Notes: generated from the letters alone by a model not told the origin. A stretch of 64,000 bases of DNA from Acidimicrobiia bacterium (GCA_041746105.1 JBGTHP010000025.1:154682-218681), one strand, 5' to 3'. Counted from the first letter of the stretch, positions 17,269-36,906 are shown. Program-made: numbers and translations.

Positions 17269-18063
17269 ATGTCCGGAATGGACGGTTTCCTTTTTCCTCG
17301 AACCGCTCGCGGTGAGAGTTCGCTGCTGCCTCCTCCACCGTGGCATTACTCGGGCGAAATGCTCACCGTCGAATACCGGACGGACCCTGTAAATATTCGA
17401 GCGCTGCTCCCCGATGGAGTTGAGCCCCTCGACGATGACCCTGGAGCGGTGGCGCTGATCTGGGCCGACTGGCAGAGTTGTTCCGACCGCTTCGACGAGA
17501 TTCTTGATCCAGTTCGCAGCCAGTACAAGGAGGCGTTCTTCGTTATCCGCTGTCGATATCAGGATCGGCCGTATTCCCGATGTCCATTGATCTGGGTGGA
17601 CAAGGACTTCGCCCTGGTCCGTGGATATCACCAGGGATATCCGAAGAAGCTCGGAGAAATCTGGATGACCCGACCGGTTTCGATCGGGCGCGCCGGACCC
17701 CGGCTGGAACCAGGCGGTCGCTTTGGCGCCACGCTGTCTTCAAATGGCCGCCGGCTGGCCGAGGCGCGTTTTTCGCTGGTTGAGCCCACCGATCGCCCTG
17801 GTTTCGTCAATGCCCATCCCATGCTCCACAACCGCTGGTTTCCGGCGATCGAATCGGACGGTTCCGACAGCGTCGACGAACTGGTGACGATGAGTGGGTA
17901 TGACGGCGCGATCGCCGACGTGTGGCGAGCGGATGCCGAGTTGGCCTTGGGAGCCAGCCCCACCGACGAGTTGGAGCTGCTCACTCCCATTGAGATCATT
18001 GGCGGGTTTTATCACAGAGTTGGTGTCTCGTGGCGTGCGGGCACCACGCTCGAACGCCGATGA
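17269..18063 (+). CDS. acetoacetate decarboxylase-like (ADC superfamily) protein
   Basis: N-terminal PPPWHYSGEML motif characteristic of the ADC-like family (MppR-like). Confidence 0.65.
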   Translation: MSGMDGFLFPRTARGESSLLPPPPWHYSGEMLTVEYRTDPVNIRALLPDGVEPLDDDPGAVALIWADWQSCSDRFDEILDPVRSQYKEAFFVIRCRYQDRPYSRCPLIWVDKDFALVRGYHQGYPKKLGEIWMTRPVSIGRAGPRLEPGGRFGATLSSNGRRLAEARFSLVEPTDRPGFVNAHPMLHNRWFPAIESDGSDSVDELVTMSGYDGAIADVWRADAELALGASPTDELELLTPIEIIGGFYHRVGVSWRAGTTLERR

Positions 18064-18542
18064 GCCAGGATCGCGATGATGACATTCGAAGGGTTGTGGG
18101 CGGCGGCCACGACTTCGAGTCGATGGCTGCGGTCCTCAATGTGTACCGGGCGGCGACCTCGATCCGAAATCAGATCGAGCGAAAACTCCTGAACCGCCAT
18201 GGGCTCAGTTGGGGAGGGTTCACCGCGCTGTTCGTGCTGTGGATCTGGGGGCCGATGGAGTCTCACCGCCTGGCCGACGAATGCGGCCTCGCCAAGGGAA
18301 CGCTCTCGGGCGTGTTGACCACCTTGGAACGACGAGACCTGATTCGACGAAACCGGCTCAGCTCCGATCGCCGGCGAGTCGAGGTCGTGGCCACCGGCGC
18401 CGGGCTCGAGTTGGTCAAGGCCGTCTACCCGGAATTCAACCGGCTCGAAACCGACGTGACATCGTCGTTGACGGGAGAAGAAAAACGTCTCCTTGCCGAC
18501 ATGTTGGGACGGCTCCGTCGAACCGCAGAAGGAATTGGTTGA
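18060..18542 (+). CDS. MarR-family transcriptional regulator
   Basis: Winged-helix region (GPMESHRLADECGLAKGTLSGVLTTLERRDLIRR...DRR). ATGA overlap with the upstream stop. Confidence 0.8.
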   Translation: MSQDRDDDIRRVVGGGHDFESMAAVLNVYRAATSIRNQIERKLLNRHGLSWGGFTALFVLWIWGPMESHRLADECGLAKGTLSGVLTTLERRDLIRRNRLSSDRRRVEVVATGAGLELVKAVYPEFNRLETDVTSSLTGEEKRLLADMLGRLRRTAEGIG

Positions 18543-18600
18543 CGGGACGATCGGTCACAACATATCGTTTGGGGCCGAATGATCGAGAGAGAGGACGGCT

Positions 18601-19476
18601 ATGGGTGAGATCGTCGGCGTCGGATTGGTCAGCCACGTGCCTACCACCATGCTGCCAGAGGCGACTCGCCTCGAGCTGAACGATGGCAAAGAACTGAGCT
18701 TCATTCCAGGCTATGCCAGGCTTCGTCGAGAGGTGCTCGATCCGCTCGAGGCCGACACGATCGTCATTTTCGACTCACACTGGTTCACAACTGTCGAGCA
18801 TGTCGTCTCTTCCCACGAACGACGAGCGGGGGTGTTTACCAGTTCGGAGCTCCCAAGGGGTATGGCCCAACTCACCTATGACTATCCGGGAGACCCAGAA
18901 CTCGGTCGGGCGGCGGCGCGGATCGGCGCCGAGCTTGGAACACCAACACATGCATCAGAAGATCCCTACCTGCCGGTCTACTACGCCACGACCAACCTCG
19001 TTCACTTTCTCCGCCGCGACGAACGAGTTGTTTCGGTGAGTGTGGTCCAAACCGGGGAGACCGAAGATTTTCTCACCATGGGCGCCGCAATCGGAGCGGC
19101 AGTGGCGGAGGTCGACCGGCGGGTAGTGCTCTTTGCCTCCGGAGGCATGAGTCACCGGTTCTGGCGGCTCAAGGAATTGGTCAAGCATGAAGCTTCTGAT
19201 CCGGTTCACATCACCTCGCCAGATGCCCGTGCCGCGGATCTCGAACGGATCGAATGGATGAAACAAGGACGCCACGACTTGATCATCGACGGAATGGACA
19301 ACTATCTCCGGCACCATCCTGAAGGTGACTTCGGGCACTACTTGATGATGGTTGGGGCGGTCGGCGGGAAAGCCTGTGTCGCCCCGGGACGTATGTATTC
19401 GGAGTATGAGAGCTCGGCGGGCACCGGGCAGGTCCACATGTGGTTCGACCGCCCGGATCGGGGTTGGAGCGGCTGA
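18601..19476 (+). CDS. class III extradiol ring-cleavage dioxygenase (LigB family)
   Basis: LigB-family features (VIFDSHWF...GGMSHRF). Approximately 290 aa. Confidence 0.8.
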   Translation: MGEIVGVGLVSHVPTTMLPEATRLELNDGKELSFIPGYARLRREVLDPLEADTIVIFDSHWFTTVEHVVSSHERRAGVFTSSELPRGMAQLTYDYPGDPELGRAAARIGAELGTPTHASEDPYLPVYYATTNLVHFLRRDERVVSVSVVQTGETEDFLTMGAAIGAAVAEVDRRVVLFASGGMSHRFWRLKELVKHEASDPVHITSPDARAADLERIEWMKQGRHDLIIDGMDNYLRHHPEGDFGHYLMMVGAVGGKACVAPGRMYSEYESSAGTGQVHMWFDRPDRGWSG

Positions 19477-19487
19477 GGACGCGCCGG

Positions 19488-20636
19488 TCAGCGCGAGCGG
19501 CCGGTGGGAGAGTCAGACATCGTCAGGGATTGTCGATTTTCGAGTGTGAATCTGTCCTCCGGCTTCCAGCGTCCCATCGCCATTCCGGCAACATATTCGC
19601 CAACCACCGGCGCATGCTTGAAGATCGAGCCCGAACCTCCCCCGGCAAAGATCACGTCCGGTTGCTCTGGATGAAAGTCCAGCAAGAAGTGGGTATCCGG
19701 GGTCATCACGATCTGGCACACCCTCTGGTCCATGATCGGTTGTTGCGCCAACTCCGGGAAGCGATATGAAAGGTACTGCCGGCTCCGGGTGAGGGCACCC
19801 TGGTCCACCACCCGGTCGTCGTTGTCGAGGTCGATGTCCGTTTCGTGCCACGCGATTACGGCCTTGAACCCGCATCCTTCGACATCCGGAATCCCGTAAC
19901 CGGGGTAGCCGTGATCGATCCAAACCGGATGGTTGTCGGCGTGATATCTGGTGCTACCCGGCGGGGGCGCGGTGTAGATCACGTCCTGGCGCACAACCCG
20001 CAGCACTCGTCCCAGGGTTTGTCGATACATCTGGCCCATCCATGCCCCAGTCGCCACCACCGTCCGATCCGCCTTCAGCGGCTCCCCGTCCAGTTGGAGT
20101 CTTTCTTTGGCGCCGGTGCTCGGTCGTCCCAGTCGGAACCGCCCTCCGAGTGTCTGATACTCCTCGAACGCCCTGACCAGCGCTCGTCGTGCCCAGATGA
20201 ATCCTGCCTCGGGTTCGAATATGGCGAACTCGACCCGCTGGAAGTTCATGTGCGGATAACGCTGTTCCAACTCGTCTCTGGCAAGGCGAAAAGCTGGTAT
20301 CCCGAGGCGTTCCAGCGTCGGCAGGGCTGCTGCTTCCCAGGCGGAATGGCCGGTGGCCGCCATCACCAGACCACCGGTCTGGCGGAAGAGTTCGGTGTTC
20401 CAGTCGCGACCCAATTCCAGCCAGCGTTGCCGCGACTCATACTGCCAGCGGGTATACAGCTCGTCTGCGCCGTGAGCAGACCGGGTCACCCGGTGATGAT
20501 CAGAGGAGGCCGCCCTGGCATGTCCCGGCTCCCAGCCGTCGTACAAAACAACGTCACACCCCTGTTTTCGCAGCTCCAATGCAGTCATCACGCCTACGAT
20601 GCCAGCACCGATTACGGCGTATCGAGTGGCGGTCAT
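19488..20636 (-). CDS. FAD-dependent oxidoreductase (DAO family; sarcosine-oxidase-beta / PuuB-like amine oxidase)
   Basis: N-terminal YAVIGAGIVGVMTALEL Rossmann (GxGxxG). Start taken at the internal M (MTATRY...). Confidence 0.8.
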   Translation of the reverse strand: MTATRYAVIGAGIVGVMTALELRKQGCDVVLYDGWEPGHARAASSDHHRVTRSAHGADELYTRWQYESRQRWLELGRDWNTELFRQTGGLVMAATGHSAWEAAALPTLERLGIPAFRLARDELEQRYPHMNFQRVEFAIFEPEAGFIWARRALVRAFEEYQTLGGRFRLGRPSTGAKERLQLDGEPLKADRTVVATGAWMGQMYRQTLGRVLRVVRQDVIYTAPPPGSTRYHADNHPVWIDHGYPGYGIPDVEGCGFKAVIAWHETDIDLDNDDRVVDQGALTRSRQYLSYRFPELAQQPIMDQRVCQIVMTPDTHFLLDFHPEQPDVIFAGGGSGSIFKHAPVVGEYVAGMAMGRWKPEDRFTLENRQSLTMSDSPTGRSR

Positions 20637-20669
20637 GGCTCTCCCGGGGTCGCTTTCACGTCGCTTGAA

Positions 20670-20683
20670 TACTGTATACAGAA
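20670..20683. promoter_or_regulatory. palindromic operator-like motif tACTGTATACAGaa (site 1 of 4) in the divergent promoter region between the FAD-oxidase gene and the GS-like/BMC operon
   Basis: Perfect 10-bp palindrome CTGTATACAG at 20672-20681. Related motifs at 34236, 36346 and 36858. Confidence 0.55.
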
Positions 20684-20722
20684 TAGCTAGGGTCGCGCCA
20701 GCACAACCGAGGAGGATCATTG

Positions 20723-22012
20723 ATGGCGGCGCTCGATGAGGGCATCACAACGGTGGTGATGGGGATTGGCGACCTCAACGGCATCCTCCGCGGCAAGCGC
20801 ATCCCGATCTCGCACTGGCCAACGATCCGCGAGGAGGGGATGGCGCTTTCCAACGCCATCTTCGCCATGGACATGAATTGTGACATCTGGGACACACCCT
20901 ACGCCAACATGGGGACCGGTTACCCCGATGTCAGGGTGTTCCCGCTTTCGGAGAAGCCCCACCTGATGCCCTGGGATCCCGGCGCGGCGTTTGTGATGGG
21001 AAGGGTCGAAAAAGAACACGGCGGCCCACTCGAGATCGACCCGCGCAACGCTTTGGTGAAGGTCACGGAGAAGGCCAGTTCCATGGGACTGAACGTACTG
21101 ATCGGGGCCGAGCTCGAGTTCTTTTTGCTCGATCCGGAAACCCTCCAACCCCGGGACAGCGGCATCCAGGTCTATGGGTTGGAGCGAGCGATGGAACTCG
21201 AACCCGTTCTGGGCCCGATTCGCGACCAGTTGGTGGCGGCGGGCATCCCGATCGAACAGTCCAATCCGGAATATGCTCCCGGCCAGGTCGAGGTGAACAT
21301 CCGGTACTCGGACGCCCTCGAAACCGCCGACAGGGTGGTGGCATTCCGTGGCATGGTCAAACAACTGGCCGTGACGCATGGGTATGTCGCCTCCTTCATG
21401 GCCAAACCGTTCTTCGAACACTCCGGAAACGGCTTCCATGTGCACCATTCGGCAACCGACGATTCGGGCAAGAATCTCTTTGCCTCGGGCGGCCATCTAT
21501 CGGACCTGGGGACGTCGTATCTCGCCGGGTTGCGCAAGCACATGATGGAACTGGCAGTGTTCTCGGCTCCCAACCCAAACGCCTACCGGCGCCGGCAGCC
21601 TTACACCTTTTGCCCGATCAACAACGCATGGGGAGTCGACAATCGTACGGTCGGCCTCCGGGTGATCGAAGGACCGGACAAGATCGTGCGTGTCGAGCAG
21701 CGAGACGCGTCAGCCGACGCCAACCCGTATCTTCTGCTCGCGGGCCAGATCGCCGCCGGTTTGGCCGGCATCGAGGGTGGCTGGGACCCGGGGCCGGCAG
21801 AGACAGGCGATGGATACGCCAACGAAGCTGCAGATCCGCTCCCGCTGGAGTTAGGCTCGGCTATCGCTCTCGCTCAAGACTCAAACCTGATCAAATCCGT
21901 GTTCGACCCTGATCTGTTGGGTATCTATCTCAGTCAGGCGGCGAGAGAGATCGAATTCATCGGTGCCCAGGTCACGCCGCTCGAGCGTGAACGTTATCTC
22001 CGGAGCTTCTGA
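20723..22012 (+). CDS. glutamine-synthetase-like gamma-glutamyl-amine ligase (GlnA3/GlnA4/PuuA/GmaS-like)
   Basis: GS catalytic motifs GAELEFFL, NPEYAPGQVEVN, SGNGFHVHHS, NPNAYRRR and NRTVGLRV. Approximately 430 aa. RBS GAGGAGGA 7 nt before the ATG. Confidence 0.85.
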   Translation: MAALDEGITTVVMGIGDLNGILRGKRIPISHWPTIREEGMALSNAIFAMDMNCDIWDTPYANMGTGYPDVRVFPLSEKPHLMPWDPGAAFVMGRVEKEHGGPLEIDPRNALVKVTEKASSMGLNVLIGAELEFFLLDPETLQPRDSGIQVYGLERAMELEPVLGPIRDQLVAAGIPIEQSNPEYAPGQVEVNIRYSDALETADRVVAFRGMVKQLAVTHGYVASFMAKPFFEHSGNGFHVHHSATDDSGKNLFASGGHLSDLGTSYLAGLRKHMMELAVFSAPNPNAYRRRQPYTFCPINNAWGVDNRTVGLRVIEGPDKIVRVEQRDASADANPYLLLAGQIAAGLAGIEGGWDPGPAETGDGYANEAADPLPLELGSAIALAQDSNLIKSVFDPDLLGIYLSQAAREIEFIGAQVTPLERERYLRSF

Positions 22013-22317
22013 TGAGATTGGCACGCGTCGTCGGTACGGTCACCGCAACCACCAAAGATCGGGCACTGGAAGGGCATCGGTTTCTGGTTGTCGACCTGGT
22101 CGACCCCGACGGTGTCGTCATCGACCCGCATCACGTTGCTGCGGATGCGGTAGGCGCCGGCACCGGCGACTTGGTCCTGGTGACTTCAGGGTCCTCGGCG
22201 AGGCAGGCACAGCGAACAGTCGCCCTTCCCGCGGATTTGGCCGTTGTCATGATCGTTGACGAGATCGCAATGAGCGGACAGGGTGAGGCTTTGTCCAAGC
22301 ACAAGAAAGGAAAATGA
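22012..22317 (+). CDS. bacterial microcompartment vertex protein BMC-P (EutN/CcmL/PduN family)
   Basis: MRLARVVGTVTATTKD...GHRFLVVDLVD...VAADAVGAGTGDLVLVTSGSSAR matches the EutN/PduN pattern. tgATG overlap with the upstream stop. Confidence 0.9.
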   Translation: MRLARVVGTVTATTKDRALEGHRFLVVDLVDPDGVVIDPHHVAADAVGAGTGDLVLVTSGSSARQAQRTVALPADLAVVMIVDEIAMSGQGEALSKHKKGK

Positions 22318-22320
22318 GTG

Positions 22321-22602
22321 ATGGCAGATCAGATTGCCCTGGGCATGATTGAGACGCGGGGGGTGGTGGCGTCGATCGAGGCCGCCGATGCGATGGTGAA
22401 AGCCGCAAACGTGGCACTCGTCGGGCAAGAAAAGGCGGGCGGCGGCCTGGTTGCCGTTTTTGTCCGCGGCGAAGTTGGAGCCGTCAAAGCGGCGGTGGAT
22501 GCCGGCGCAGTCGCTGCGAACAAGGTTGGCGAAGTGATAGCCGTTCACGTTATCCCGCGCCCGGCGACCGAGATCGAGGGCATCCTCCCTCAGACGTCTT
22601 GA
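22321..22602 (+). CDS. bacterial microcompartment shell hexamer protein BMC-H (PduA/EutM/CcmK-like)
   Basis: [58 protein letters not shown]...VHVIPRP is near-identical in pattern to PduA. Confidence 0.95.
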
Positions 22603-22610
22603 ACTGATCG

Positions 22611-23780
22611 ATGACGACCGCGGGTTTCCATGAGGCGGTTGCGGCGTTTTCTGCGCCGGTTTCGGCTCGCCCCGACCCCAGAACGCCGGCTCGGGTCACC
22701 GTGCTCGGCTCGGGGGTTGAGGGTCGCGCCCTCGCGGCATGGTTCCTGGCAGAAGGCGCAGACCAGGTCAGTCTCTTCTCGGTGTACCAAGATGAATTGA
22801 CGGCACTTGCCCGAGGATCGATCACTCTGCGCGGAGACGGGCCGGTGGGGACATTCCGAGTAGGGGGCGAGGCCCCGTCGATCGCGTCGACATCGGTTTT
22901 GGATCGGTCGGTGGAAGGTGCCGATCTGGTCGTGATTTCGGGCCCCGTGCTGAAACAACGGACCTATGGGCTGGTGGTCGCCCCTTACCTACACGACGGT
23001 CAAACAATCTTGGTGGTTCCTGGTCGGTCGCTGGCGGCCCTCGAACTCCTTCAATCGATCCGTGCCGGTGGCAGCACCGCCGATGTGCGCTTGGTGGAGG
23101 TCGATGATCTACCTTTTGACATCGGCGTCGATGGGTCGACTCTGACGTTGACCCGGCGCCGGACCGTCAGAGCCGGTGTCTACCCCGGCTCGGCCACATC
23201 GGTTCTAGAGGGTTTGCGTCGTTTTTTCCCGGAACTGGTTTCCGCCACGTCGGTCCTCGATTCGACCCTTGGCGACGGTTCGGGCATCGTCTCGATCCCG
23301 GCGCTCCTGGTGGGCGGACCCGGCGCACCACCCATCGAAAGTGCAGGACCTCCCGGTGCGGTGTTGCTGAACCCGAACACTTTCCGCGGGCTGATCGGGG
23401 ATGCCCAAATACAATTGGTGGCGGCGTTGGCAGACGAGCGCAGAGAAGTGGCGAGTCGCTTTGGGTTGCGTGCGCTCCCGAGCGACGAAGAATGGTTGGA
23501 TGCCGTGGCAGGCTCCACAGAGGGCACTGGAGTGCGAGCAGTCCCTGACGAAGCCACCGCCCGCAGTCTGCTTCGAGATGCGGTGCTCGGCTCCCTTGTC
23601 CCCTTGACGTCGATGGCGAACGCCGCCGGCGTCGCCGCCCCGGTCACGGAAGCCATGATCGAGTTGTCGGAGCGCGTTCTTGGGACCGCGCTGCGAGCCA
23701 GCGGCAGGAATCTGGATCTCTGCGGGCTAGGGGGCCTGAGTGCGCCCGAGATTCGGGCCCGGCTGGCGGTGGCGTCGTGA
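22611..23780 (+). CDS. NAD(P)-binding oxidoreductase, opine-dehydrogenase-like (Rossmann N-domain plus helical C-domain)
   Basis: VTVLGSGVEGRALAAWFLAEG dinucleotide motif resembles opine DH (VLGLGNGGHAFAAYLALKG). Approximately 389 aa. 8-nt gap after BMC-H. Family assignment is tentative. Confidence 0.5.
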   Translation: MTTAGFHEAVAAFSAPVSARPDPRTPARVTVLGSGVEGRALAAWFLAEGADQVSLFSVYQDELTALARGSITLRGDGPVGTFRVGGEAPSIASTSVLDRSVEGADLVVISGPVLKQRTYGLVVAPYLHDGQTILVVPGRSLAALELLQSIRAGGSTADVRLVEVDDLPFDIGVDGSTLTLTRRRTVRAGVYPGSATSVLEGLRRFFPELVSATSVLDSTLGDGSGIVSIPALLVGGPGAPPIESAGPPGAVLLNPNTFRGLIGDAQIQLVAALADERREVASRFGLRALPSDEEWLDAVAGSTEGTGVRAVPDEATARSLLRDAVLGSLVPLTSMANAAGVAAPVTEAMIELSERVLGTALRASGRNLDLCGLGGLSAPEIRARLAVAS

Positions 23781-25159
23781 CCGATGCCGACCTGAGAAGT
23801 ATCGCCCAGGCGCGGCGCGCAGTAGAGGCCGCCCATGTCGCCCAGCAGCGATTTCTTGCCACCGATCCGTCACGTATCGACGAGATCGTCGAGGCGATGG
23901 CGCGTGCGGTCGAGATCGACGCCGCCCGACTCGGCGCGCTCGCAGCCGAGGAGACCGGCTACGGCAACGCAGAGGACAAACGAATCAAGAACCTCTTCAA
24001 CTCGATCGGAGTCGCAGAGTGGCTGCGCAACGTCAAGACTCTTGGAGTCCTATGGCAAGACCCGGTTACAAAAGTGGTGGCGATAGGCGAACCGATGGGG
24101 GTAGTGGTCGCCCTAATCCCGGTAACCAACCCGACCTCGACCATCATCTTCAAAGTGCTGTCTGCGGTGAAAGCCGGCAATGCCATCGTGTGTGCACCAC
24201 ATCCACGCGGGGTCGGGTGCGGAATGGAAACCGTAAAAGTGATGATGACTGCGGCGGCCGAGCACGGGGCGCCGGACAACCTGATCCAATGTCTTTCCGA
24301 GGTGACCGTCGAGGGCACCCAGGAGCTGATGCGCCACCGCCGGACGTCGGTGGTCATGGCGACCGGGGGATCGGCGATGGTTCGAGCGGCCTATTCCTCC
24401 GGTAAACCGACCCTGGCGGTGGGCCCAGGGAACGTGCCCGTGTACGTCCATGCGTCGATGCGCGACGAGCTTCGCGAAGTCGCCGATCAAATCCTCACGT
24501 CCAAGTCGTTCGACTACGGCACGGCGTGCGCAGCGGAGCAGGCCGTGGTCGTCGACAGGGCCGTCGCCCCGCTGCTCGAACAGGAGGTCCGCCAATTGGG
24601 CGGCTACTTCTGCACGACGGGTGAGGCAGCCAGACTGGCCGATGTGATCTTTGACGACAACCAGGTGATCCGGCCTGGGGGAGTGGGGCAGTCGGCCTCC
24701 GAACTCTCTCGCAGGGCAGGTTTTGGAGTTCCCCCCAACACCCGTGTTCTCCTCGCCCGTGAGAGCGAGGTCGGACGAAACCGCCCACTCTCGCTCGAGA
24801 AACTGAATCCGGTGCTGGCCTGGTACGACGCCCCGAGTGAGGATCAGGCGTATGAACTGTGCTTCCAGATCTTGCGATTCGGCGGTAGGGGTCACACTTC
24901 GGCGATCCACACCAAAGATCCCGCCATTGTCGCCCGGTTTGGCCGCCTACCGGCAGGAAGGGTCCTGATCAACCAACCGGCGCTGATGGGGGCAATGGGA
25001 TACTCGGCCGACCTCGAACCGAGCTTCATGCTGGGCACGGGGACCGTATCTGGCTCGATCGTGTCAGACAATGTGACCGCCTTGCATCTGATCAACATCA
25101 AACGTGTCGCCTACGAGTCGAGACCGTGGCGCAGCATCTACGACGTATACGGAGCGTGA
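23777..25159 (+). CDS. CoA-acylating aldehyde dehydrogenase (EutE/PduP family)
   Basis: Approximately 460 aa with FDYGTACAAEQ active-site region (cf. FDNGxxCxSEQ). Lacks the ELGGKSP/GQxC motifs of hydrolytic ALDHs. Sits between shell genes. Confidence 0.85.
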   Translation: MTDADLRSIAQARRAVEAAHVAQQRFLATDPSRIDEIVEAMARAVEIDAARLGALAAEETGYGNAEDKRIKNLFNSIGVAEWLRNVKTLGVLWQDPVTKVVAIGEPMGVVVALIPVTNPTSTIIFKVLSAVKAGNAIVCAPHPRGVGCGMETVKVMMTAAAEHGAPDNLIQCLSEVTVEGTQELMRHRRTSVVMATGGSAMVRAAYSSGKPTLAVGPGNVPVYVHASMRDELREVADQILTSKSFDYGTACAAEQAVVVDRAVAPLLEQEVRQLGGYFCTTGEAARLADVIFDDNQVIRPGGVGQSASELSRRAGFGVPPNTRVLLARESEVGRNRPLSLEKLNPVLAWYDAPSEDQAYELCFQILRFGGRGHTSAIHTKDPAIVARFGRLPAGRVLINQPALMGAMGYSADLEPSFMLGTGTVSGSIVSDNVTALHLINIKRVAYESRPWRSIYDVYGA

Positions 25160-25161
25160 CC

Positions 25162-25791
25162 ATGAACCGACCTGGAACCGTGGTCAGAGCCCTGCTTCAG
25201 ATCGATCGACTTCAGCCAAAATTCGCCGCCTACAACGGTGCCACCGTTCAGGGGTCTATTCCCCTCGCCGGGGACACGATCCTCGTTGGCGAGATGGCGC
25301 CAGGCAACGAGGTGTTCAGATTGATCGACACCGCCTTGAAAGCAGCCACCATCGAGGCGACCAGCCAGATCGTGGAGCGCGAATTCGGGTTCTTCATCCT
25401 CCGATCACCCAGTAATGCGGAGATCAGCGCAGCCCGCGACGCGATTCTGGCCCATCTCGGGATCACGATGTCCGATCGGCTGAAACCGGTCGTGGAATCT
25501 ACCCAGATCATCACCTCGGTTGAGCCCTATCAGGCCCAACTTCTCAACAAATGGCGCAAAGGGTCCCTTCTGGTACCCGGCCAAACTCTCGGCATCGTCG
25601 AATGCGCTCCCGCTGCCTATATCTCGATAGCGGCCAACGAGGCCGAGAAGTCGGCCGATATCGACATCGTCGAGGTACGCGCGGTCGGCCGTTTCGGTCG
25701 ATTCTTCATGTCGGGATCGGAAGCGGCGGTTGAGACCGCAATGGAGGCGGCCGTCATCGCACTCCAAGCGGTAGAAGGAAGGGCCCAGTGA
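25162..25791 (+). CDS. tandem-domain BMC shell protein (BMC-T-like)
   Basis: Two approximately 90-aa BMC-like halves. The second half (TLGIVECAPAAYISIAANEAEKSADIDIVEV...GSEAAVETAMEAAV) is a clear BMC domain. Confidence 0.7.
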   Translation: MNRPGTVVRALLQIDRLQPKFAAYNGATVQGSIPLAGDTILVGEMAPGNEVFRLIDTALKAATIEATSQIVEREFGFFILRSPSNAEISAARDAILAHLGITMSDRLKPVVESTQIITSVEPYQAQLLNKWRKGSLLVPGQTLGIVECAPAAYISIAANEAEKSADIDIVEVRAVGRFGRFFMSGSEAAVETAMEAAVIALQAVEGRAQ

Positions 25792-26999
25792 CCTCTGGTC
25801 GACCGGTGATTCACCCCGGGGCCGGGGTGATCGGCGAGGTCGATGTGCTCGGCGCGTTCCGGCAGGGACGCCGTACGCTCCATGTCCAGCCAAGCGCCCT
25901 GGTCACCAATCAGGCGGCGGAGGCGGCTCAGCGGCTCGGTGTTTCCATTGTTGTGGGGGCTCCGACGGCGGCGGCAGTGCCCGCCACCGACGGGGCCGCG
26001 GTACTCCGCCGATCGCTTTACCGACGCAGCCCGAAGTTTGTACCGTCGGAAAAGCCCAGAGGCCTCCAACCATCGACGCTGGGACGACTCGTTATCGTGG
26101 GAGCGGGCGGTGTCGGATCCAATACGGCCCATCTGGCGGCTTCGCGCTCGCTTGCCCACGAGATCGTGCTCATCGACGTGGTTCCAGGATCGGCGGCCGC
26201 CACTGCCCTCGACCTCGAACATTCGGCCGGCATCACCGGTTCAACATCGCGTTTGAGTGGAGGAACCGACCTGGCGATGATCGAGGGGGCCGACGTCGTG
26301 GTCATAACCGCCGGTCGGCCCCGGTCCCCTGGCATGTCCAGAAGTGATCTGGTCGGGACCAATGGCAGGGTTGTACGCCAGGTGTCGGAACAAGTGGCGT
26401 CGGTTGCCCCGGGATCCGTCGTGATCGTTGTCACGAACCCACTAGACGAGATGACCGTGGAGGCGCTACGTGCAACCGGCTTTCCCAGAGAGCGCGTTCT
26501 GGGGATGGCGGGCACTCTCGACTCCGCACGATTCAGGTCGTCCTTGGCGAGAGCCGCCGGCGTTGACCCTGGCGATGTCGAGGCGATCACTCTGGGTAGC
26601 CATGGCGAGGAGATGGTCCCGATCATCAGCACCGCCACGGTACGCGGCCGTCCGCTTGACACGGTGCTGACTCCCGAGCAGATCGACCGCTGCGTCGCCG
26701 AAACCGTTGCGGGAGGTGGTCAAATCGTCGCGCTTCGCAAATCGGGCTCCGCAACCTTGGCTCCGGCCCACGCAACGCTCGAGGTTCTCGAGTCGATTCG
26801 AGGCGCCCGGGCGGGAGCCATCCCGGTTTCGATTCGCTTGGAAGGCGAATACGGGATCAGCGGCACGGTGGTGGGTGTTCCAACAATATTGGGCTCGGCC
26901 GGCGTGATCGAGATCGTCGAGTTGCCGCTGGCCTCAGGAGAAATGTCTGCACTGGCTCGCGCCGCGGCCGCCGTCGCCGCCCGAGTAGCCTCGGTCTGA
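25788..26999 (+). CDS. L-lactate/malate dehydrogenase-family oxidoreductase with approximately 95-aa N-terminal extension
   Basis: LVIVGAGGVGSNTAHL Rossmann, VVITAGRPRSPGMSRSDL and GSHGEEMVPI LDH/MDH motifs start at about aa 100. GTGA overlap with the BMC-T stop supports the long N-terminus. Confidence 0.8.
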   Translation: MTSGRPVIHPGAGVIGEVDVLGAFRQGRRTLHVQPSALVTNQAAEAAQRLGVSIVVGAPTAAAVPATDGAAVLRRSLYRRSPKFVPSEKPRGLQPSTLGRLVIVGAGGVGSNTAHLAASRSLAHEIVLIDVVPGSAAATALDLEHSAGITGSTSRLSGGTDLAMIEGADVVVITAGRPRSPGMSRSDLVGTNGRVVRQVSEQVASVAPGSVVIVVTNPLDEMTVEALRATGFPRERVLGMAGTLDSARFRSSLARAAGVDPGDVEAITLGSHGEEMVPIISTATVRGRPLDTVLTPEQIDRCVAETVAGGGQIVALRKSGSATLAPAHATLEVLESIRGARAGAIPVSIRLEGEYGISGTVVGVPTILGSAGVIEIVELPLASGEMSALARAAAAVAARVASV

Positions 27000-27526
27000 T
27001 GGGTTTCGAAGAAGTCGAGTTCGGGTCTCGCAAGGTTGTGGCCGTGAGCCGGCCTTCCAAGCCGCGTAAGCGTGAGGGCCGGGCAAGCACGCAGAAGCCC
27101 GATCCATCGGAGCCGCCGGCCGACACGGGAGCGGTCCTGGTTCCCCTTGATCAGTGGACGAGTATTCTCAACCAACTCGGAAACCTCCACCAGGCGGGTC
27201 AGCAGATGGCCGACGCCAGGGAACGGGCGGCGAAGGCCGAAACGGAAGCCTTTTTCCTCAAGGAGCGGCTGCGGGAATTACGAGAGGAACTTGCCAAGGC
27301 GAGAGCTGCGGCCACGGAATTCGTCAACAGCACCGCATCCGTCGACACCGAAGTGGCTCCAACCGACACCGGGGTCACTGCGACCGGCGATCCGGCAAGC
27401 GGCGCAAGCGAAATCGGCCAAGTCCAAGAAGACGAAGACGTCGCCATTGACCTCACCACCGACCGGGTGCTCATTGTCAGGCTTCCGAGCAGAGTCACCA
27501 AATGGTGGCTCGAGCGGCGGACCTGA
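26999..27526 (+). CDS. hypothetical coiled-coil protein
   Basis: ATGA overlap with the upstream stop. E/K/R-rich helical composition. An alternative-frame ORF (27072-27545) looks like an Arg-rich translation artefact. Confidence 0.45.
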   Translation: MGFEEVEFGSRKVVAVSRPSKPRKREGRASTQKPDPSEPPADTGAVLVPLDQWTSILNQLGNLHQAGQQMADARERAAKAETEAFFLKERLRELREELAKARAAATEFVNSTASVDTEVAPTDTGVTATGDPASGASEIGQVQEDEDVAIDLTTDRVLIVRLPSRVTKWWLERRT

Positions 27527-27545
27527 TGAGAAAGCCGACGGCGCT

Positions 27546-28457
27546 GTGAGAGTGGCAGCAGTTCAGGCGGCTCCTGTTTGGCTCGACCGCGCCAAAACGA
27601 TCGAGGTCGTCGTCGATTCGATCGCGGCGGCGGCCGCCGGGGGAGCAGAAGTGGTCGCCTTCCCGGAGACGTTCTTACCCGGATATCCGGTATGGGTCGA
27701 CATGACCGACGCCGCCAGTTGGGAAAATCCGCGTCAAAAGGACGCATACGCCTGGTATGTGGACCAGGCGGTTGATCTGGCGGGCGCCGAGTTCGAGTTG
27801 GTGGTCAATGCCGTGAAAGACCATGGCGTGTTCGCCTATGTCGGGGTGGTGGAGCGATCAGCTTCTGCTGGTTCGGTCTACTGCACCTTGGTGGCGATTC
27901 ATCCAGACGAAGGTGTGGTGGGAGCACACCGCAAGCTCAAGCCGACCTTTGGGGAGCGTTTGGTCTGGGCCGACGGCGATGGAGCCGGCCTGAAAGCCCA
28001 CAGATGGAAGGAGGCGACCCTCACCGGATTGAACTGTTGGGAGAACTGGATGCCACTGGCGCGAGCAGCCATGTACTCGCTCGGGTCACAGATTCACATC
28101 GCGACGTGGCCCGGATCGACGAAACTGACCCAGGACATCACCCGGTTCATCGCCAAGGAGGGCAGAGTGTTCGCAGTCAGCGTCGGCGGTGTCTATCGGG
28201 CAGAAGATATCCCCTCGTCATTCCCACTTGCCGAGCAAATGCTGGCGCACGCCTCTGAGTTCTACAACGGTGGTTCGATGATTGTTGCTCCGGACGGGTC
28301 TGTCATCGTCGGGCCGGTGGCGTCGGAAGAGGGGCTGTTGTTCGCCGATCTCGATCTTGCGATGGTTACGCGGGAACGCCAGAACTTCGACCCGTCAGGT
28401 CACTACTCCCGTCCCGACGTGCTACACCTAGCCGTCGACAGGAAACGAAACGCCTGA
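27546..28457 (+). CDS. carbon-nitrogen hydrolase (nitrilase/amidase superfamily)
   Basis: VAAVQAAPVWLD...AFPETFLPGYP (Glu), HRKLKP (Lys) and LNCWENWMP (Cys) form the Glu-Lys-Cys triad. GTG start. Confidence 0.8.
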   Translation: MRVAAVQAAPVWLDRAKTIEVVVDSIAAAAAGGAEVVAFPETFLPGYPVWVDMTDAASWENPRQKDAYAWYVDQAVDLAGAEFELVVNAVKDHGVFAYVGVVERSASAGSVYCTLVAIHPDEGVVGAHRKLKPTFGERLVWADGDGAGLKAHRWKEATLTGLNCWENWMPLARAAMYSLGSQIHIATWPGSTKLTQDITRFIAKEGRVFAVSVGGVYRAEDIPSSFPLAEQMLAHASEFYNGGSMIVAPDGSVIVGPVASEEGLLFADLDLAMVTRERQNFDPSGHYSRPDVLHLAVDRKRNA

Positions 28458-31179: not shown

Positions 31180-32601
31180 TCACCAGGTGAAGGGCCGGTC
31201 GATACCGGCCATCTTGACGCCGGTGAACGCGCTCGCCTCCAGGCTCAGTGCACGGAGATCCTCGACCTCGAGGTTGTGCACCGAACTTTTGCCGCAAGCC
31301 TTGGCCAGCAGCGTGATCTCCATCGTCATCGCCGTCAGGTAGCGAGCCACCCTTTCGGCCCCGGCTGCGACCTGCATGCGTTTCTCCAGCTCGGGGTCTT
31401 GTGTCGTGATTCCGACCGGACAGCGTCCGGTGTGACAGTGGTGACACTGCCCGGGAGCGGTACCCAACGCTTCGTAGTCGTCGAGATACCTTGGACTGTT
31501 GCACCCCAGTGCCATCAGAGCCGCGGTGCCGATCATGACACAGTCGGCGCCGAGGGCGAGAGCCTTGGCCGCATCAACACCGGAGCGGATTCCACCGGCG
31601 GCCACCAACTTGACCTCGTCGGCCATGCCGCAATCTTCCAGCGCCTGTCTGGCGGCTCTGATCGCGGACAGGGTGGGAATGCCGGTGTGGTCGAGCAGCA
31701 GTTCTGGTGAGGCGCCGGTCCCTCCCTCGGCCCCATCGACCACGATCACGTCGGCGCCGGCCTTGGCGGCGATGGCCACATCAAAACGAGGCCGGGTGGC
31801 CCCCATCTTGACAAACATCGGGATCTTGTAGTCGGTCGCCTCCCTCAGTTCCTCGATCTTCACCTGGAGATCGTCGGCGCCGAGAAAATCTGGGTGACGT
31901 ACGGTCGAACGTTGATCCACACCCAGCGGCAACGAACGCATCTTGGCCACTCGTTCAGAAACCTTCATCCCGAGCAGGATTCCACCGGTCCCCGGCTTGG
32001 CCCCCTGGCCAACGACTATCTCGATTGCGTCTGCCCTTCGCAGATGATCCAGGTCGAGCATGTAACGCGACGGGGTCATCTGGTAGACGAGTTTGTTGGA
32101 TGCCTCGCGTTCGTCTTCGAGCATCCCGCCCTCGCCGGTACACGTCATCGATCCGACCTTTGAGGCGCCGTATCCGAGGGCGGCCTTGGCCGACGCCGAG
32201 AGAGCGCCAAAAGACATCGATGCGATGTATATCGGGATCCCCAGGTCGAGTGGCTGTGAAACAAGACCCTTGCGGTCGCCGAGGACTGTGCGGGTGTCAC
32301 AGCTCTCTCGGTATCCTTCGAGAGGGAGTCGAGTCATCGAAGCCGGAACAAAAACGAGGTCGTCAAAGGTGGGAAAACTCTTGTTTGCGGTGGTGAAACC
32401 ACGAATCTGATAGCGGCCGAGCCTCGACAGTGCGTGGACCTCCGATATCGACTCCGGGGTCCACCGGATCGACTTTCCTGGTGCGTACGAGGATGGGACC
32501 CCGGCCGGGCGCCCGCCGATTCCGCCGTCGGTCATCGCCACCGCGTCTTCGTCTGGCATCGGGAATGGGTACTGGTACCCCTGGGTCAGATCATCAGCCA
32601 T
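31180..32601 (-). CDS. glutamate-synthase-family FMN-binding protein (GltB domain 2-like; MgsC-like)
   Basis: Glu_synthase FMN/Fe-S domain (GGTGASP, CxxGxC cluster region). Approximately 473 aa. Confidence 0.85.
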   Translation of the reverse strand: MADDLTQGYQYPFPMPDEDAVAMTDGGIGGRPAGVPSSYAPGKSIRWTPESISEVHALSRLGRYQIRGFTTANKSFPTFDDLVFVPASMTRLPLEGYRESCDTRTVLGDRKGLVSQPLDLGIPIYIASMSFGALSASAKAALGYGASKVGSMTCTGEGGMLEDEREASNKLVYQMTPSRYMLDLDHLRRADAIEIVVGQGAKPGTGGILLGMKVSERVAKMRSLPLGVDQRSTVRHPDFLGADDLQVKIEELREATDYKIPMFVKMGATRPRFDVAIAAKAGADVIVVDGAEGGTGASPELLLDHTGIPTLSAIRAARQALEDCGMADEVKLVAAGGIRSGVDAAKALALGADCVMIGTAALMALGCNSPRYLDDYEALGTAPGQCHHCHTGRCPVGITTQDPELEKRMQVAAGAERVARYLTAMTMEITLLAKACGKSSVHNLEVEDLRALSLEASAFTGVKMAGIDRPFTW

Positions 32602-33278
32602 GCGCTCGCATCCCTACTCTCGAAGTGCCACAACCGTTGCCCCGACACGATTTTCTTCCAGTCGAACGAACCCGTTATGTCGAGGCCGGCCAGCAGCTGG
32701 GATACGTCGGCAACCTCTTCTGCCGTCGGCTCGACGACATCCGTATCCACGCCGAGAGACTTGATCGGCCCTGCCACCCACACCTCGCCACCCCACAACG
32801 AATCACCGCACGCGTCCTCTGTGCCCTCGAGGGCGATGATGCGACCGGCGTGGGCCATGAACCCCGTCAAAAACCCGACCTTCCCCTCCACGACGATGTC
32901 GCCGCCCTTCATTGCCACACCGCAGCGGGGTCCGGCGTCGCCTTTGACATGGATCAGTCCGCCCCGCATGGAGGCGCCAACGCTCATCCCTGCGTACCCG
33001 TCCACGGTGACGGATCCCTTGGCCATGGCCTCACCGGTACCCCAGCCGGCGTTGCGGGTGACCCTGATCGTCGCCCCGTTGTTGAGGCCGCCGCAGTAAT
33101 AACCGACCGAACCGTCGAAGAGGATGTCGGCGCCTTCCGGCAGCGCAACCCCGAGGTTGTGTCGCGAGAGGGTGTCGCGAACCATGACCCGTTCACCTTC
33201 TGCGATTGCCATACGGATCTCGGCGTTCACCTCTCGGATCGGCCTGTCGCCGACAACCACCTCCACGCGATCGGTCAT
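32586..33278 (-). CDS. glutamate synthase GXGXG-domain protein (MgsB-like)
   Basis: Repeated GxGxG beta-helix motifs (GDAGPRCGVAMKGGDIVVEG). Confidence 0.8.
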   Translation of the reverse strand: MTDRVEVVVGDRPIREVNAEIRMAIAEGERVMVRDTLSRHNLGVALPEGADILFDGSVGYYCGGLNNGATIRVTRNAGWGTGEAMAKGSVTVDGYAGMSVGASMRGGLIHVKGDAGPRCGVAMKGGDIVVEGKVGFLTGFMAHAGRIIALEGTEDACGDSLWGGEVWVAGPIKSLGVDTDVVEPTAEEVADVSQLLAGLDITGSFDWKKIVSGQRLWHFESRDASAWLMI

Positions 33279-34219
33279 ACGCCGACTCCCACCCCGGTGT
33301 GGTAGATGTGGCTTTCGAGAGGCCCGTCGTAATTGATGACCGACACTTCATCCCGGTAGATCTTTCGGATCGCCTGTTCTTCTGTTGCGATGGCGACATT
33401 GCCGTCCGCCTCATCGACGACGACGAGCGGCTTGATGGCGAATCGATCCTTGGCGAAACCGACCATGTCCTCGGTTGACAGGATGTAGGTGAAACATCCG
33501 TCGAGCGCCGACTTGGACATCTCCAATGACTCGGTCAGTGAATTCCCTGCCGCCATCTGATCCGAAAGCCAGACCGCAATGACCTCGGAGTCGTTTTGGG
33601 TCTTGAAGTCATAACCCTTCCGTTTCAGGCGATCGGTGAGGAGGTAATAGTTGGTCAATTGGCCGTTGTGGACGATGGCGATGTCTGGATAGGGGCGCGC
33701 CCAGAACGGATGGGAGGCGGTGGGGGATACGAAGGACTCTGTGGCCATTCTGGCGTTGCCAACACCGTGAGTTCCCCGAAAGTCCCGTACCCCATGTTTG
33801 TCGGCTACCTCGTAGGCATCTCCGAGGTCCTTGATGATTTCGAGGGATCGACCAACCGATTGCAGCTCGAGGCCAGGGATGTGGTCTGCTTCGGCCAACC
33901 AGCGTTCTAGCCCGCTCTCGGGGTCGCCAACGATTGCCCTGATCGACACGTGACGTTGATTCAGCGAATCCCACGTCGGGTCTTCGAGGAAATCGGAGCC
34001 GTGTTCGCGGCTTACGGCGAGAAAGGTGTCCAACACCGAGGAGATGTCAGAGCGATCGGCGGCCACCGCTCTGATGACATAACCAGACTCACGCCTCGGC
34101 CCGTAGAGACCGAATCCGGTGGAATCGGCGCCACGATGGCGCTGGGCCTGCATCATTTCGACGAGGTCTTGTCCCAGTGATCCATCTAGGGAGCAGATTC
34201 TGGCGGCTATTCCGCACAT
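33275..34219 (-). CDS. class-II glutamine amidotransferase (GltB N-terminal domain-like; MgsA-like)
   Basis: MCGIAARI N-terminal nucleophile Cys. True start taken at the internal M (34219) so that Cys is residue 2. Confidence 0.85.
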   Translation of the reverse strand: MCGIAARICSLDGSLGQDLVEMMQAQRHRGADSTGFGLYGPRRESGYVIRAVAADRSDISSVLDTFLAVSREHGSDFLEDPTWDSLNQRHVSIRAIVGDPESGLERWLAEADHIPGLELQSVGRSLEIIKDLGDAYEVADKHGVRDFRGTHGVGNARMATESFVSPTASHPFWARPYPDIAIVHNGQLTNYYLLTDRLKRKGYDFKTQNDSEVIAVWLSDQMAAGNSLTESLEMSKSALDGCFTYILSTEDMVGFAKDRFAIKPLVVVDEADGNVAIATEEQAIRKIYRDEVSVINYDGPLESHIYHTGVGVGV

Positions 34220-34235
34220 TCCAACCTCCGGTGTG

Positions 34236-34249
34236 TACTGAATACAGTA
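34236..34249. promoter_or_regulatory. palindromic operator-like motif TACTGAATACAGTA (site 2) upstream of the split glutamate-synthase-like operon
   Basis: 5-bp inverted arms TACTG/CAGTA with AATA spacer, 17-20 nt upstream of the corrected start. Confidence 0.5.
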
Positions 34250-34278
34250 TACCATCTGCCTTGGCCACCGCGGAAGCC

Positions 34279-34881
34279 CTAGACGGCGAGGAGGTGGTCG
34301 AGAAGCTCGAGATGGTCGCGGGCTTCTGCAGGTTTGATCGGAATCGAGTAGGGCGGCATCGGAGGGAAATACACCGCGGTGATGGTGCCGGGAAGCGGAG
34401 TGATCACGATGCGCCGGCCACCCTGGTCGCTTTCGACAACGATCGACTTCAGTTCGGAACGGCCTGCAAGCCTTGTCGTGGTCTCGTCCGACAACCGCGC
34501 CCCGAGTCCGTCGTCGAGGCCCTTCTTGCGAACGAATCGTTTCTTGTCGAAGCGATATTCAAACCGGCTCGGGTCGGGACCGAGGGTCCCCGTGATCCCA
34601 ACCCATTGGGTGTCGATCAGTGCGCCGAACATCCGGTATCGCCCATGAAACCCGACTTCAATCGTGCGATCGGTCAGTTCGACCCTGGCCGACTGGAAAA
34701 GCGTGTCATCGATGTCGACTGCTTCGCCAAAACGTTGCAGCAGGGCGGCGGTCGGAACCTCCATCAACGTCTGGCGGCGCTGTCGATATAGCCGGCGCGC
34801 CCGTCGGCGCAGGCTCAGCGGGATGGAGCCGGTCTTGCGACCGGCTCCATCTGGCAAAACCTCGTCTCCGCTCGAGGTCAT
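34279..34881 (-). CDS. hypothetical protein, translationally coupled to the upstream permease
   Basis: ATGA overlap with the permease stop. No confident family. Confidence 0.5.
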   Translation of the reverse strand: MTSSGDEVLPDGAGRKTGSIPLSLRRRARRLYRQRRQTLMEVPTAALLQRFGEAVDIDDTLFQSARVELTDRTIEVGFHGRYRMFGALIDTQWVGITGTLGPDPSRFEYRFDKKRFVRKKGLDDGLGARLSDETTTRLAGRSELKSIVVESDQGGRRIVITPLPGTITAVYFPPMPPYSIPIKPAEARDHLELLDHLLAV

Positions 34882-36821: not shown

Positions 36822-36852
36822 CGTGGTTACGTTAGTGACGGTTAGTCTTACT

Positions 36853-36871
36853 CTGCATACTGAATGCAGAA
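36853..36871. promoter_or_regulatory. operator-like inverted repeat CTGCAT-actga-ATGCAG / TACTGAATGCAGAA (site 4) in the RidA-GntR divergent promoter region
   Basis: 6-bp inverted arms. Differs from site 2 by one base. Confidence 0.5.
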
Positions 36872-36906
36872 TGCGGTCCGGTCTACAGACAGATGGCGGT
36901 GATCCG

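Follow-up and report, generated by a model that had tools for sequence, protein, structure and literature searches.

A 64,000-nucleotide stretch of the genome of an Acidimicrobiia bacterium (GCA_041746105.1 JBGTHP010000025.1:154682-218681; this whole stretch is called the window, and positions are counted from its first letter) carries at 25788 to 26999 a gene which, judged from sequence and gene order, encodes the lactate/malate dehydrogenase (LDH/MDH) family enzyme of a MIC2-type bacterial microcompartment (BMC), or metabolosome with incomplete core. The enzyme has an N-terminal extension, and residues ~12-58 of it are a module of about 47 residues that sequence comparison identifies as homologous to the N-terminal H1/H2 region of EutQ, outside the cupin domain of that protein. 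Because the homologous region of Salmonella EutQ associates with shells, and because the module recurs on other BMC enzymes, the extension is most likely a shell-binding domain and not a classical amphipathic encapsulation peptide. Our overall reading, in which we have moderate confidence, is that the MIC2 MDH is tethered to the shell by this EutQ-N-type module and recycles NAD+ for the coenzyme A-acylating aldehyde dehydrogenase (AldDh) of the same operon.

The extension was already recorded in 2021 by Sutter et al. (PMC8217296, Supplementary Data 2, 'MIC2 - 22 loci') on the pfam02866 protein of MIC2, and a similar domain was listed for MIC1. That catalogue describes it as about 70 aa long and 'EutQ/cupin-like, possibly ligand-binding'. 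The match to the MIC2 entry makes the feature itself a re-discovery; what is added here is the homology to EutQ H1/H2 and the presence of the module on homologues of PduL, Pta, RpiB and the adenosyltransferase ATR. The finding is valuable as a pointer to a testable mechanism rather than as a surprise.

The gene and its N-terminal extension

The gene and its parts are as follows; AF2 is AlphaFold2, HMM is hidden Markov model and pLDDT is the predicted local distance difference test.

25788..26999, + strand: coding sequence (403 aa) of the BMC-associated, N-terminally extended LDH-like malate dehydrogenase, from a GTG start to the TGA stop at 26997-26999
25774..25783, + strand: purine-rich, Shine-Dalgarno-like GAAGGAAGGG, 4 nt 5' of the MDH GTG and within the end of the BMC-T gene, read from the sequence
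25788..25791, + strand: GTGA, in which the MDH start overlaps the BMC-T stop by 4 nt (the BMC-T reading frame ends at 25791)
25821..25961, + strand: EutQ-N-type alpha/beta module, proposed shell-binding domain, residues 12-58 (AF2, hhalign, HMM search)
25962..26078, + strand: linker between module and Rossmann fold, residues 59-97, with a conserved motif and pLDDT 49-75
26079..26996, + strand: NAD-binding and catalytic domains of an LDH-like (type 3) MDH, residues 98-403 (Pfam, PRK06223, 1uxi)
26310..26342, + strand: active-site loop A175-G-R-P-R-S-P-G-M-S-R185 (1uxi alignment, invariant columns, loop census)

A preliminary description of this DNA had placed about 95 residues ahead of a Rossmann domain that begins near residue 100, and the reading frame is as described there. 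The Pfam families Ldh_1_N and Ldh_1_C cover residues 100-239 and 243-395, and residues 1-100 match no Pfam family, even at E<=10, and no NCBIfam family. The extension had also been called additional to canonical LDH and MDH, which alignment bears out: all 60 of the best 60 solved LDH/MDH chains (294-346 aa) align from query residue 97-101 on, never earlier. The empty first 100 residues and the common starting point of these chains indicate that the extension is real and has no counterpart in ordinary LDH or MDH.

The best 120 database homologues cover 89-100% of the query and are 364-456 aa long, or 385-437 aa if three are set aside; the nearest named one, a protein from an Acidimicrobiia metagenome-assembled genome, is 70% identical to the window MDH. 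Across 34 diverse N-termini, V14, G16, G27, T40, R75 and L77 are invariant, and A43, R49, L50, G57, P58, D68, Y78, R79, P82 and W84 are conserved in at least 90%. No in-frame ATG, GTG or TTG occurs between codons 64 and 104 of the gene, and codon 104 lies inside Rossmann strand 1, so a product of canonical length cannot be made; an internal start near the Rossmann fold was rejected on this ground. In its GC1/2/3 pattern the extension is like the remainder of the gene. Full-length homologues, invariant residues, the start-free stretch and the GC1/2/3 pattern all point the same way, and on this sequence evidence the extension, earlier thought probably translated, is translated and under selection.

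The GTG start overlaps the stop codon of the preceding BMC-T gene, as had been noted, and the arrangement is by its sequence one of translational coupling of MDH to BMC-T. Among 64 related loci the junction is a 4-nt overlap in 33 and a 1-nt overlap in 16, and the BMC-T stop and the MDH start are separated by -7 to +3 nt in 58.

A scan of one genome per species yielded 80 loci, comprising 56 with the extension (match from residue 31 or earlier to about 400) and 24 without it (match only from residue 80-100 on); neighbouring genes were called by tblastn with the core proteins of the window and by an HMM of the extension. Similar extensions are therefore found in orthologous loci, and BMC-T lies immediately 5' of MDH in all 56. 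Genes for AldDh, an opine-dehydrogenase-like protein, BMC-H and BMC-P are present in the extension-bearing loci wherever the contig is long enough, and a gene for a glutamine-synthetase-like (GS-like) enzyme is missing in three. No BMC gene lies within 9 kb in 22 of the 24 extension-less loci. The two exceptions, L065 (3263-4354) and L084, are distinct BMC-like loci in Actinomycetota, and in L084 (3377-4456; 8725-10005) a separate open reading frame (ORF) of 284-360 aa with no Pfam match bears the module instead of the MDH. At one of the other loci a second carrier of the module, a small ORF, lies downstream of the MDH (L047:11509-11862). The extension-bearing and extension-less groups come out as reciprocally monophyletic when the catalytic domain is analysed by neighbour joining.

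The 56 loci come from Ruegeria, Sulfitobacter, Paracoccaceae, Hyphomicrobiales, Hoeflea and Geminicoccaceae, and further from Ca. Thioglobus, Granulosicoccaceae, Arenicellales, Chromatiales, Solirubrobacterales, Acidimicrobiia, Thermocrispum and Nocardioides. By its sequence, then, the extension is conserved from Alpha- and Gammaproteobacteria to Actinobacteria and is not there by chance. MIC2 is widespread, occurring in the marine Roseobacter group, SUP05, Granulosicoccaceae, Arenicellales and soil Actinobacteria.

The EutQ-like module and the linker

AF2 modelling of the full-length MDH with 78 homologues gave a pLDDT of 90.2 and a predicted template modelling score (pTM) of 0.86. The module comprises strand 14-15, helix 17-25, strand 30-33, strand 38-39, helix 41-50 and strand 53-56, and has a pLDDT of 80-95 across two models, that of the full-length protein, where the range is 82-95, and that of the N-terminus alone; that the isolated N-terminus gives the same module suggests autonomous folding. 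The comparison with EutQ was a single hypothesis, prompted by a likeness in sequence to the EutQ N-terminus, and E. coli EutQ was used for it. An hhalign comparison of a 34-sequence profile with this protein aligned residues 13-58 to EutQ 3-49 with a probability of 78% and an E value of 1.8e-5, at about 26% identity over about 46 residues. The extension HMM scored 21.5 bits against EutQ, and the maximum over 5000 shuffles was 9.9.

A profile search of 1.84 billion representative proteins returned 162 matches at E<=1e-3. Pfam-confirmed EutQ proteins were retrieved at E values of 2e-6 to 8e-4, and the EutQ matches P0178, P0180, P0201, P0222 and P0268 align at residues ~2-61, N-terminal of the cupin. 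This placement indicates that the EutQ homology noted in 2021 refers to the non-cupin N-terminal region. The 2021 catalogue suggestion, taken further, would make the extension a EutQ/cupin-type ligand-binding or regulatory domain that senses a metabolite and modulates the dehydrogenase, and we consider this very improbable. The homology is to EutQ 3-49, ahead of a cupin that begins near residue 100 in E. coli and Salmonella EutQ, and the module likewise precedes the Pfam EutQ/cupin match in the EutQ-family proteins scanned. We rejected a cupin-like fold for the extension, since the model predicts a small alpha/beta unit and no beta-barrel, and the homology is limited to EutQ 3-49. Moreover, a module that turns up on unrelated enzymes and in tandem arrays is more readily understood as a protein-protein adaptor than as a ligand sensor.

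These other carriers came from the same profile search. The module is borne by an RpiB homologue (P0207), by Pta (P0215), by PduO-type adenosyltransferases of the Cob_adeno_trans family (P0243, P0251) and by a trypsin-like peptidase (P0258), and PduL P0220 has two copies at its C-terminus. Seven proteins of 200-255 aa with no Pfam domain (P0156, P0158, P0161, P0162, P0164, P0170 and P0175) contain 2-3 matched copies and end in a peptide-like helix (..LFxxVKxAVLARL..VDxVIRxVL) resembling an encapsulation peptide. The motif common to the family is ..I[TG]xxDVxxAxxxGxxxLxVxxxxhhTxxARxxAxxLGh.h. Judged by this distribution in sequence the module is a mobile, BMC-associated domain, so the worry that an unrelated domain had been fused to the dehydrogenase by chance falls away: the extension is a homologue of the EutQ N-terminus and belongs to a known BMC-associated domain. 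As a separate observation, the tandem-module proteins look like dedicated shell-cargo scaffolds.

The preliminary description had favoured an N-terminal targeting peptide. Its targeting role stands as the best reading, and the classical peptide does not, its place being taken by a folded module of about 47 residues. The peptide reading has one amphipathic helix around SALVTNQAAEAAQRLGVSI dock on the shell, in the manner of the PduP, PduD and EutC peptides, and helix 41-50 is indeed amphipathic, with a hydrophobic moment of 0.63 over 10 residues, in an extension that is N-terminal and followed by a low-confidence linker. The hydrophobic-moment scan, however, failed to set this helix apart either from other segments or from known encapsulation peptides, and is given no weight. 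The AF2 model resolves the SALVTNQAAEAAQRLGVSI region into a strand, the 10-residue helix 41-50 and a further strand, all within a module of pLDDT 80-95, and the amphipathic encapsulation helix once proposed there has to be given up. Conservation spans the whole module (V14, G16, G27, T40, A43, A47, R49), which also occurs at C-termini and in tandem copies. Classical encapsulation peptides are recognised as a single helix of about 15-20 residues with a poorly conserved linker; here the helices have 9 and 10 residues and the linker is conserved. The PduP, PduD and EutC peptides resemble the MDH module in lying at a terminus, in the linker that comes next and in their presumed part in cargo recruitment to the shell, but they are single amphipathic helices of 15-20 residues, whereas the module is folded, about three times longer and also found in tandem and at C-termini. 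We give the peptide reading very little credence.

Shell binding has been demonstrated for Salmonella EutQ, and is proposed for the MDH module by homology. Salmonella EutQ 1-99 is enough to target green fluorescent protein to Eut BMCs, deletion of residues 9-41 (H1/H2) causes shell and cargo to separate, and a variant with H1/H2 and without H3/H4 colocalises with shells (PMC12487888). The H3/H4 region binds the EutC and EutE peptides, which makes EutQ a shell-cargo bridge (PMC12487888), and EutQ no longer binds EutM in vitro once residues 1-100 are removed (PMC4827028). For EutQ, an interface at a hexamer-trimer edge has been reported. EutQ and the MDH have in common an N-terminal module of about 46 residues, then a flexible region, fused to an enzyme domain; they differ in that EutQ continues with H3/H4 and a cupin/acetate-kinase domain, whereas the MDH has a linker motif of its own and an LDH/MDH domain. 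Membership of the EutQ-N family offers a possible route of cargo recruitment where classical encapsulation peptides are missing. The distribution of the module suggests a general, portable BMC-targeting domain and, if true, such a module could serve engineering.

Between module and Rossmann fold, the linker has the motif D68-G69-x5-R75-x-L77-Y78-R79-R80-x-P82-x-W84 (the window protein has F84) and is conserved as strongly as the module. AF2 predicts one helix, at about residues 69-79, or 69-77 in the full-length model, within its otherwise low-confidence stretch. The 1.84-billion-protein profile search found no relatives of the linker motif outside the extension-bearing MDH family. Two candidates, P0154 and P0174, were rejected as unrelated repeat proteins with scores inflated by repetition.

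The linker motif lends some weight to the possibility that the MDH is chiefly a structural hub, in which the four modules of a tetramer bind shell, the linker motif binds cargo such as AldDh, and catalysis is secondary. R75 and L77 of the motif are invariant and D68, Y78, R79, P82 and W84 are conserved in at least 90%, a degree equal to that of the module. In a six-frame scan the MDH was the sole module carrier in the window and in three related loci, and AldDh has no encapsulation peptide. The precedent of EutQ as a shell-cargo bridge fits this arrangement, as does the tight coupling of the MDH gene to BMC-T. One homologue, P0143, keeps the extension and has lost Arg102, Arg109, Asn140 and Asp168. 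Against the hub reading stand the invariance of the catalytic residues in the 78 homologues, the lack of detected similarity to EutQ H3/H4, and the fact that the pseudo-enzyme is a single cluster. We regard a mainly structural role as doubtful.

The dehydrogenase and its possible place in NAD+ recycling

The catalytic part scores 324.8 bits against the NCBIfam subfamily PRK06223 (NF004863; cut-off 283) and falls below the equivalog cut-offs for MDH (TIGR01763, 290.2 vs 351.85) and L-LDH (TIGR01771, 211.3 vs 303.55). The best solved chain is Chloroflexus aurantiacus MDH 1uxi (E 5e-74, query 100-399 vs chain 4-302). In this alignment R179, R185, D245, R248 and H272 correspond to Arg102, Arg109, Asp168, Arg171 and His195, in established LDH numbering, and all five are invariant in the 78 homologues. 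So is D130, the NAD-specific Asp at the end of strand 2. The Chloroflexus enzyme (1GUY/1UXI) aligns with the catalytic domain end to end and shares the catalytic residues and Arg102; the window protein differs in its 98 extra N-terminal residues, its R-P-R-S loop in place of A-P-R-K, and its BMC operon. By sequence the protein is thus an LDH-like MDH homologue whose active site is complete and whose Rossmann fold is of the NAD type; malate is a candidate substrate for it and not an established one. The invariance of the catalytic residues in the 78 homologues implies that catalysis is selected in nearly all lineages.

R179 is the MDH-type Arg102, the determinant of MDH, and R177, at position 100, typifies the extension-bearing clade. 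A motif census gave the loop of the BMC clade as R-[PA]-R-[S/T/G]-P-G-M-x-R and that of extension-less relatives as [L/F/V/I]-P-R-[K/Q]-P-G-M-S-R. The sole extension-less sequence with Arg at position 100 is that of L084, likewise in a BMC-like locus. With the loop remodelled in this way, oxaloacetate is a plausible substrate rather than a certain one.

P0143 lies in a MIC2-like locus and was found as the same protein in two independent sequencing runs (L088:9001-10188 and L089:7658-8845). It retains the linker motif along with the module and, given the residues lost from its active site, is probably a pseudo-enzyme. This hints at a structural role independent of catalysis.

The mechanism that we favour would run as follows. 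Residues 12-58 would bind the MIC2 shell, on BMC-H and/or BMC-T, by analogy with Salmonella EutQ, and the dehydrogenase, which is a tetramer in related enzymes, would be recruited to the lumenal face during shell assembly. NADH from the acylating AldDh would then be re-oxidised by MDH inside the compartment, through reduction of oxaloacetate or a similar 2-oxo-dicarboxylate to a 2-hydroxyacid. The NAD+ recycling supplied by the alcohol dehydrogenase of Pdu and Eut metabolosomes would thereby be provided in another way; the conserved MIC2 core, according to the window ORFs scanned and the catalogue description, is without alcohol dehydrogenase, PduS or PTAC. We put the part of this mechanism that makes MDH the NADH sink for AldDh at roughly even odds.

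The proposed functional analogues are PvmO and PduQ/EutG, as second dehydrogenases that regenerate NAD+ for AldDh. PduQ and EutG differ in being Fe-alcohol dehydrogenases that act on the pathway aldehyde, and PvmO falls in another HMM group (HMM02866_1_pvmeut, as against HMM02866_2_mic12). An LDH/MDH-family gene was predicted to recycle NAD+ in PVM, and was considered for MIC1, in 2014 (PMC4207490). MIC2 is named in a 2024 paper (PMC11626177) as one of the types for which NAD+ regeneration 'has yet to be determined'.

A number of points weigh against the reading of the MDH as a shell-tethered recycler. For the tether, shell binding is carried over from a homologue just 26% identical over about 46 residues, the hhalign probability against the single EutQ sequence is no higher than 78%, and a Foldseek search of the N-terminal model against the PDB gave nothing below E 0.1, with generic small alpha/beta matches only. 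Alignments end at EutQ residue ~49, with no H3/H4-like region detected, and the conserved linker motif is left unexplained by the homology of the module. The face of the shell on which EutQ acts is also disputed, as Held et al. assumed the cytosolic face of EutM (PMC4827028). For the recycler, the bacterial-MDH equivalog cut-off is not reached (290 vs 351.85), the active-site loop is remodelled relative to housekeeping MDHs, and the losses in P0143 are not expected of a recycling enzyme. Finally, the opine-dehydrogenase-like enzyme could equally be the recycling dehydrogenase.

This last point leads to the main alternative to the NADH sink, in which the MDH is a pathway enzyme, oxidising a 2-hydroxyacid intermediate or reducing a 2-oxoacid from the opine-dehydrogenase-like enzyme, and the latter protein does the recycling. 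Opine dehydrogenases release 2-oxoacids, and a second NAD(P) dehydrogenase is at hand in the locus to recycle the cofactor. Also in favour are the active-site loop, remodelled relative to housekeeping MDHs so that position 100 is Arg and position 103 a small residue, and a score below the MDH equivalog cut-off. On the other side, Arg102, Arg109 and Arg171 fit oxaloacetate/malate, and the metabolosome paradigm needs an NADH sink, while neither alcohol dehydrogenase nor PduS belongs to the conserved MIC2 core. We judge the pathway role a possibility to be kept in view, and rather unlikely.

The disputed face of EutQ bears on another arrangement, in which the module tethers MDH to the outer, cytosolic shell face, where the enzyme processes a metabolite passing through BMC-Tdp. 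The modelling of EutQ on the cytosolic face of EutM by Held et al. (PMC4827028) would support it. So would the coupling of the MDH gene to that of BMC-Tdp, a large-pore shell protein. PduL, RpiB, Pta and ATR are lumenal enzymes in characterised BMCs, which counts against an outer position. In vivo work of 2025 likewise places EutQ with the cargo, as a shell-cargo bridge (PMC12487888), and we find the outer face quite improbable.

A more far-reaching proposal, which we consider improbable, combines structure and catalysis by making the extension-bearing MDH the EutQ-equivalent organiser of MIC1 and MIC2 compartments and at the same time a redox valve. The four modules of a tetramer would nucleate on the shell, with the co-translated BMC-Tdp perhaps as the site, and the linker motif DG-x5-R-x-LYRR-x-P-x-W would capture cargo lacking a peptide, such as AldDh. 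The oxaloacetate/malate couple would carry reducing equivalents across the shell, like the mitochondrial malate shuttle, and P0143 would represent a lineage that keeps the scaffold role only.

The MIC2 locus and its neighbours

The other genes of the locus and its surroundings are the following.

19488..20720, - strand: DAO-family FAD oxidoreductase, divergent, next to the GS-like gene
20720..22012, + strand: glutamine-synthetase-like enzyme, first gene of the MIC2 operon (Gln-synt_C, pfam00120, E 5.8e-84)
22012..22317, + strand: BMC-P (EutN/CcmL) shell protein (Pfam)
22318..22602, + strand: BMC-H shell protein (Pfam)
22611..23780, + strand: opine-dehydrogenase-like protein of the 6PGDH-like superfamily, 389 aa (Octopine_DH C-terminal match, 26.6 bits, cut-off 30)
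23777..25159, + strand: CoA-acylating AldDh (pfam00171 Aldedh; closest to acetylating ACDH)
25162..25791, + strand: BMC-Tdp (CcmP/CsoS1D-like) shell protein (Pfam BMC; NCBIfam CcmP 207 bits, below cut-off)
31180-34255, - strand: N-methylglutamate-synthase-like trio (GATase_6/7, GXGXG, Glu_synthase)
34878-36293, - strand: amino-acid permease
36823-37602, + strand: GntR/FCD regulator

The gene order of GS-like enzyme, BMC-P, BMC-H, opine-dehydrogenase/6PGDH-like protein, AldDh, BMC-Tdp and extended MDH matches the catalogue and identifies the locus as MIC2. The window has pfam00171 with no peptide, pfam02866 with the extension, the 6PGDH-like protein, pfam00120 and the set of BMC-H together with BMC-P and BMC-T. 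PTAC, Fe-ADH and PduS were not found among the ORFs scanned in 17269-40280, which are most, not all, of that stretch. As in the MIC2 entry of Sutter et al. (2021), the extension occurs only in the BMC context, the shell is the same minimal one (a single BMC-H, a single BMC-P and a single BMC-Tdp) and the taxa are the same. Nothing essential differs; the locus here has lineage-specific additions, which are a 175-aa ORF, a CN-hydrolase and a GFO/IDH/MocA gene. The same gene order surrounds five homologues of different lineages, including those on Acidimicrobiia-like, Sulfitobacter and Immundisolibacterales contigs.

AldDh has no N-terminal encapsulation peptide, its Pfam match beginning at residue 10 with no extra helix before it. 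The opine-dehydrogenase-like protein has a short N-terminal helix, GFHEAVAAF, and then a Pro-rich linker. Its placing in the 6PGDH-like superfamily rests on a weak match (26.6 bits), and its homologues give the same Octopine_DH match. The BMC-T ORF as listed begins at GTG 25126, with a 34-nt overlap with the AldDh gene. Its homologues are 207-214 aa long with a CsoS1D_N+BMC architecture, and these lengths, together with an ATG directly after the AldDh stop, make ATG 25162 the likelier start.

The DAO gene was found by tblastn in 45 of the 56 scanned loci, its absences being mostly on short contigs, and in gene-called loci it is divergent and beside the GS-like gene. Roughly half of the loci scanned have the N-methylglutamate-synthase-like trio at a distance of no more than 9 kb. 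Five gene-called loci have a permease or ABC transporter, a GntR regulator, RidA and a C26 gamma-glutamyl hydrolase; RidA and C26 are found there and not in the window. The MIC2 catalogue entry is silent on the neighbourhood of trio, permease and regulator. The GS-like enzyme is a candidate gamma-glutamyl-amine ligase and, as a speculation from gene content, the locus may serve catabolism of a primary amine through gamma-glutamyl and N-alkylglutamate intermediates to an aldehyde.

Immediately downstream of MDH, a 175-aa ORF (26999-27526, + strand) begins with an ATG that overlaps the MDH stop (TGATG). It has no Pfam or NCBIfam match, and its central stretch (..ERAAKAETEAFFLKERLRELREELAKARAA..) looks coiled-coil-like by eye. 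In L002 and L003 the gap between MDH and the CN-hydrolase is just ~160 nt, which suggests that this ORF is lineage-specific or spurious. The CN-hydrolase/nitrilase-like ORF that follows (27072-28457, + strand) is 461 aa long as listed, and its first ~150 residues are rich in Arg, Pro and Ser and appear out of frame; with a Pfam domain that begins at residue 160 and homologues of about 300 aa, its true start is probably near 27540. More distant neighbours of the BMC locus are, upstream, an acetoacetate-decarboxylase-family gene and a LigB-type ring-opening dioxygenase (17269-19476, + strand) and, downstream, a cytochrome P450 and a non-acylating aldehyde dehydrogenase (37603-40280, - strand).

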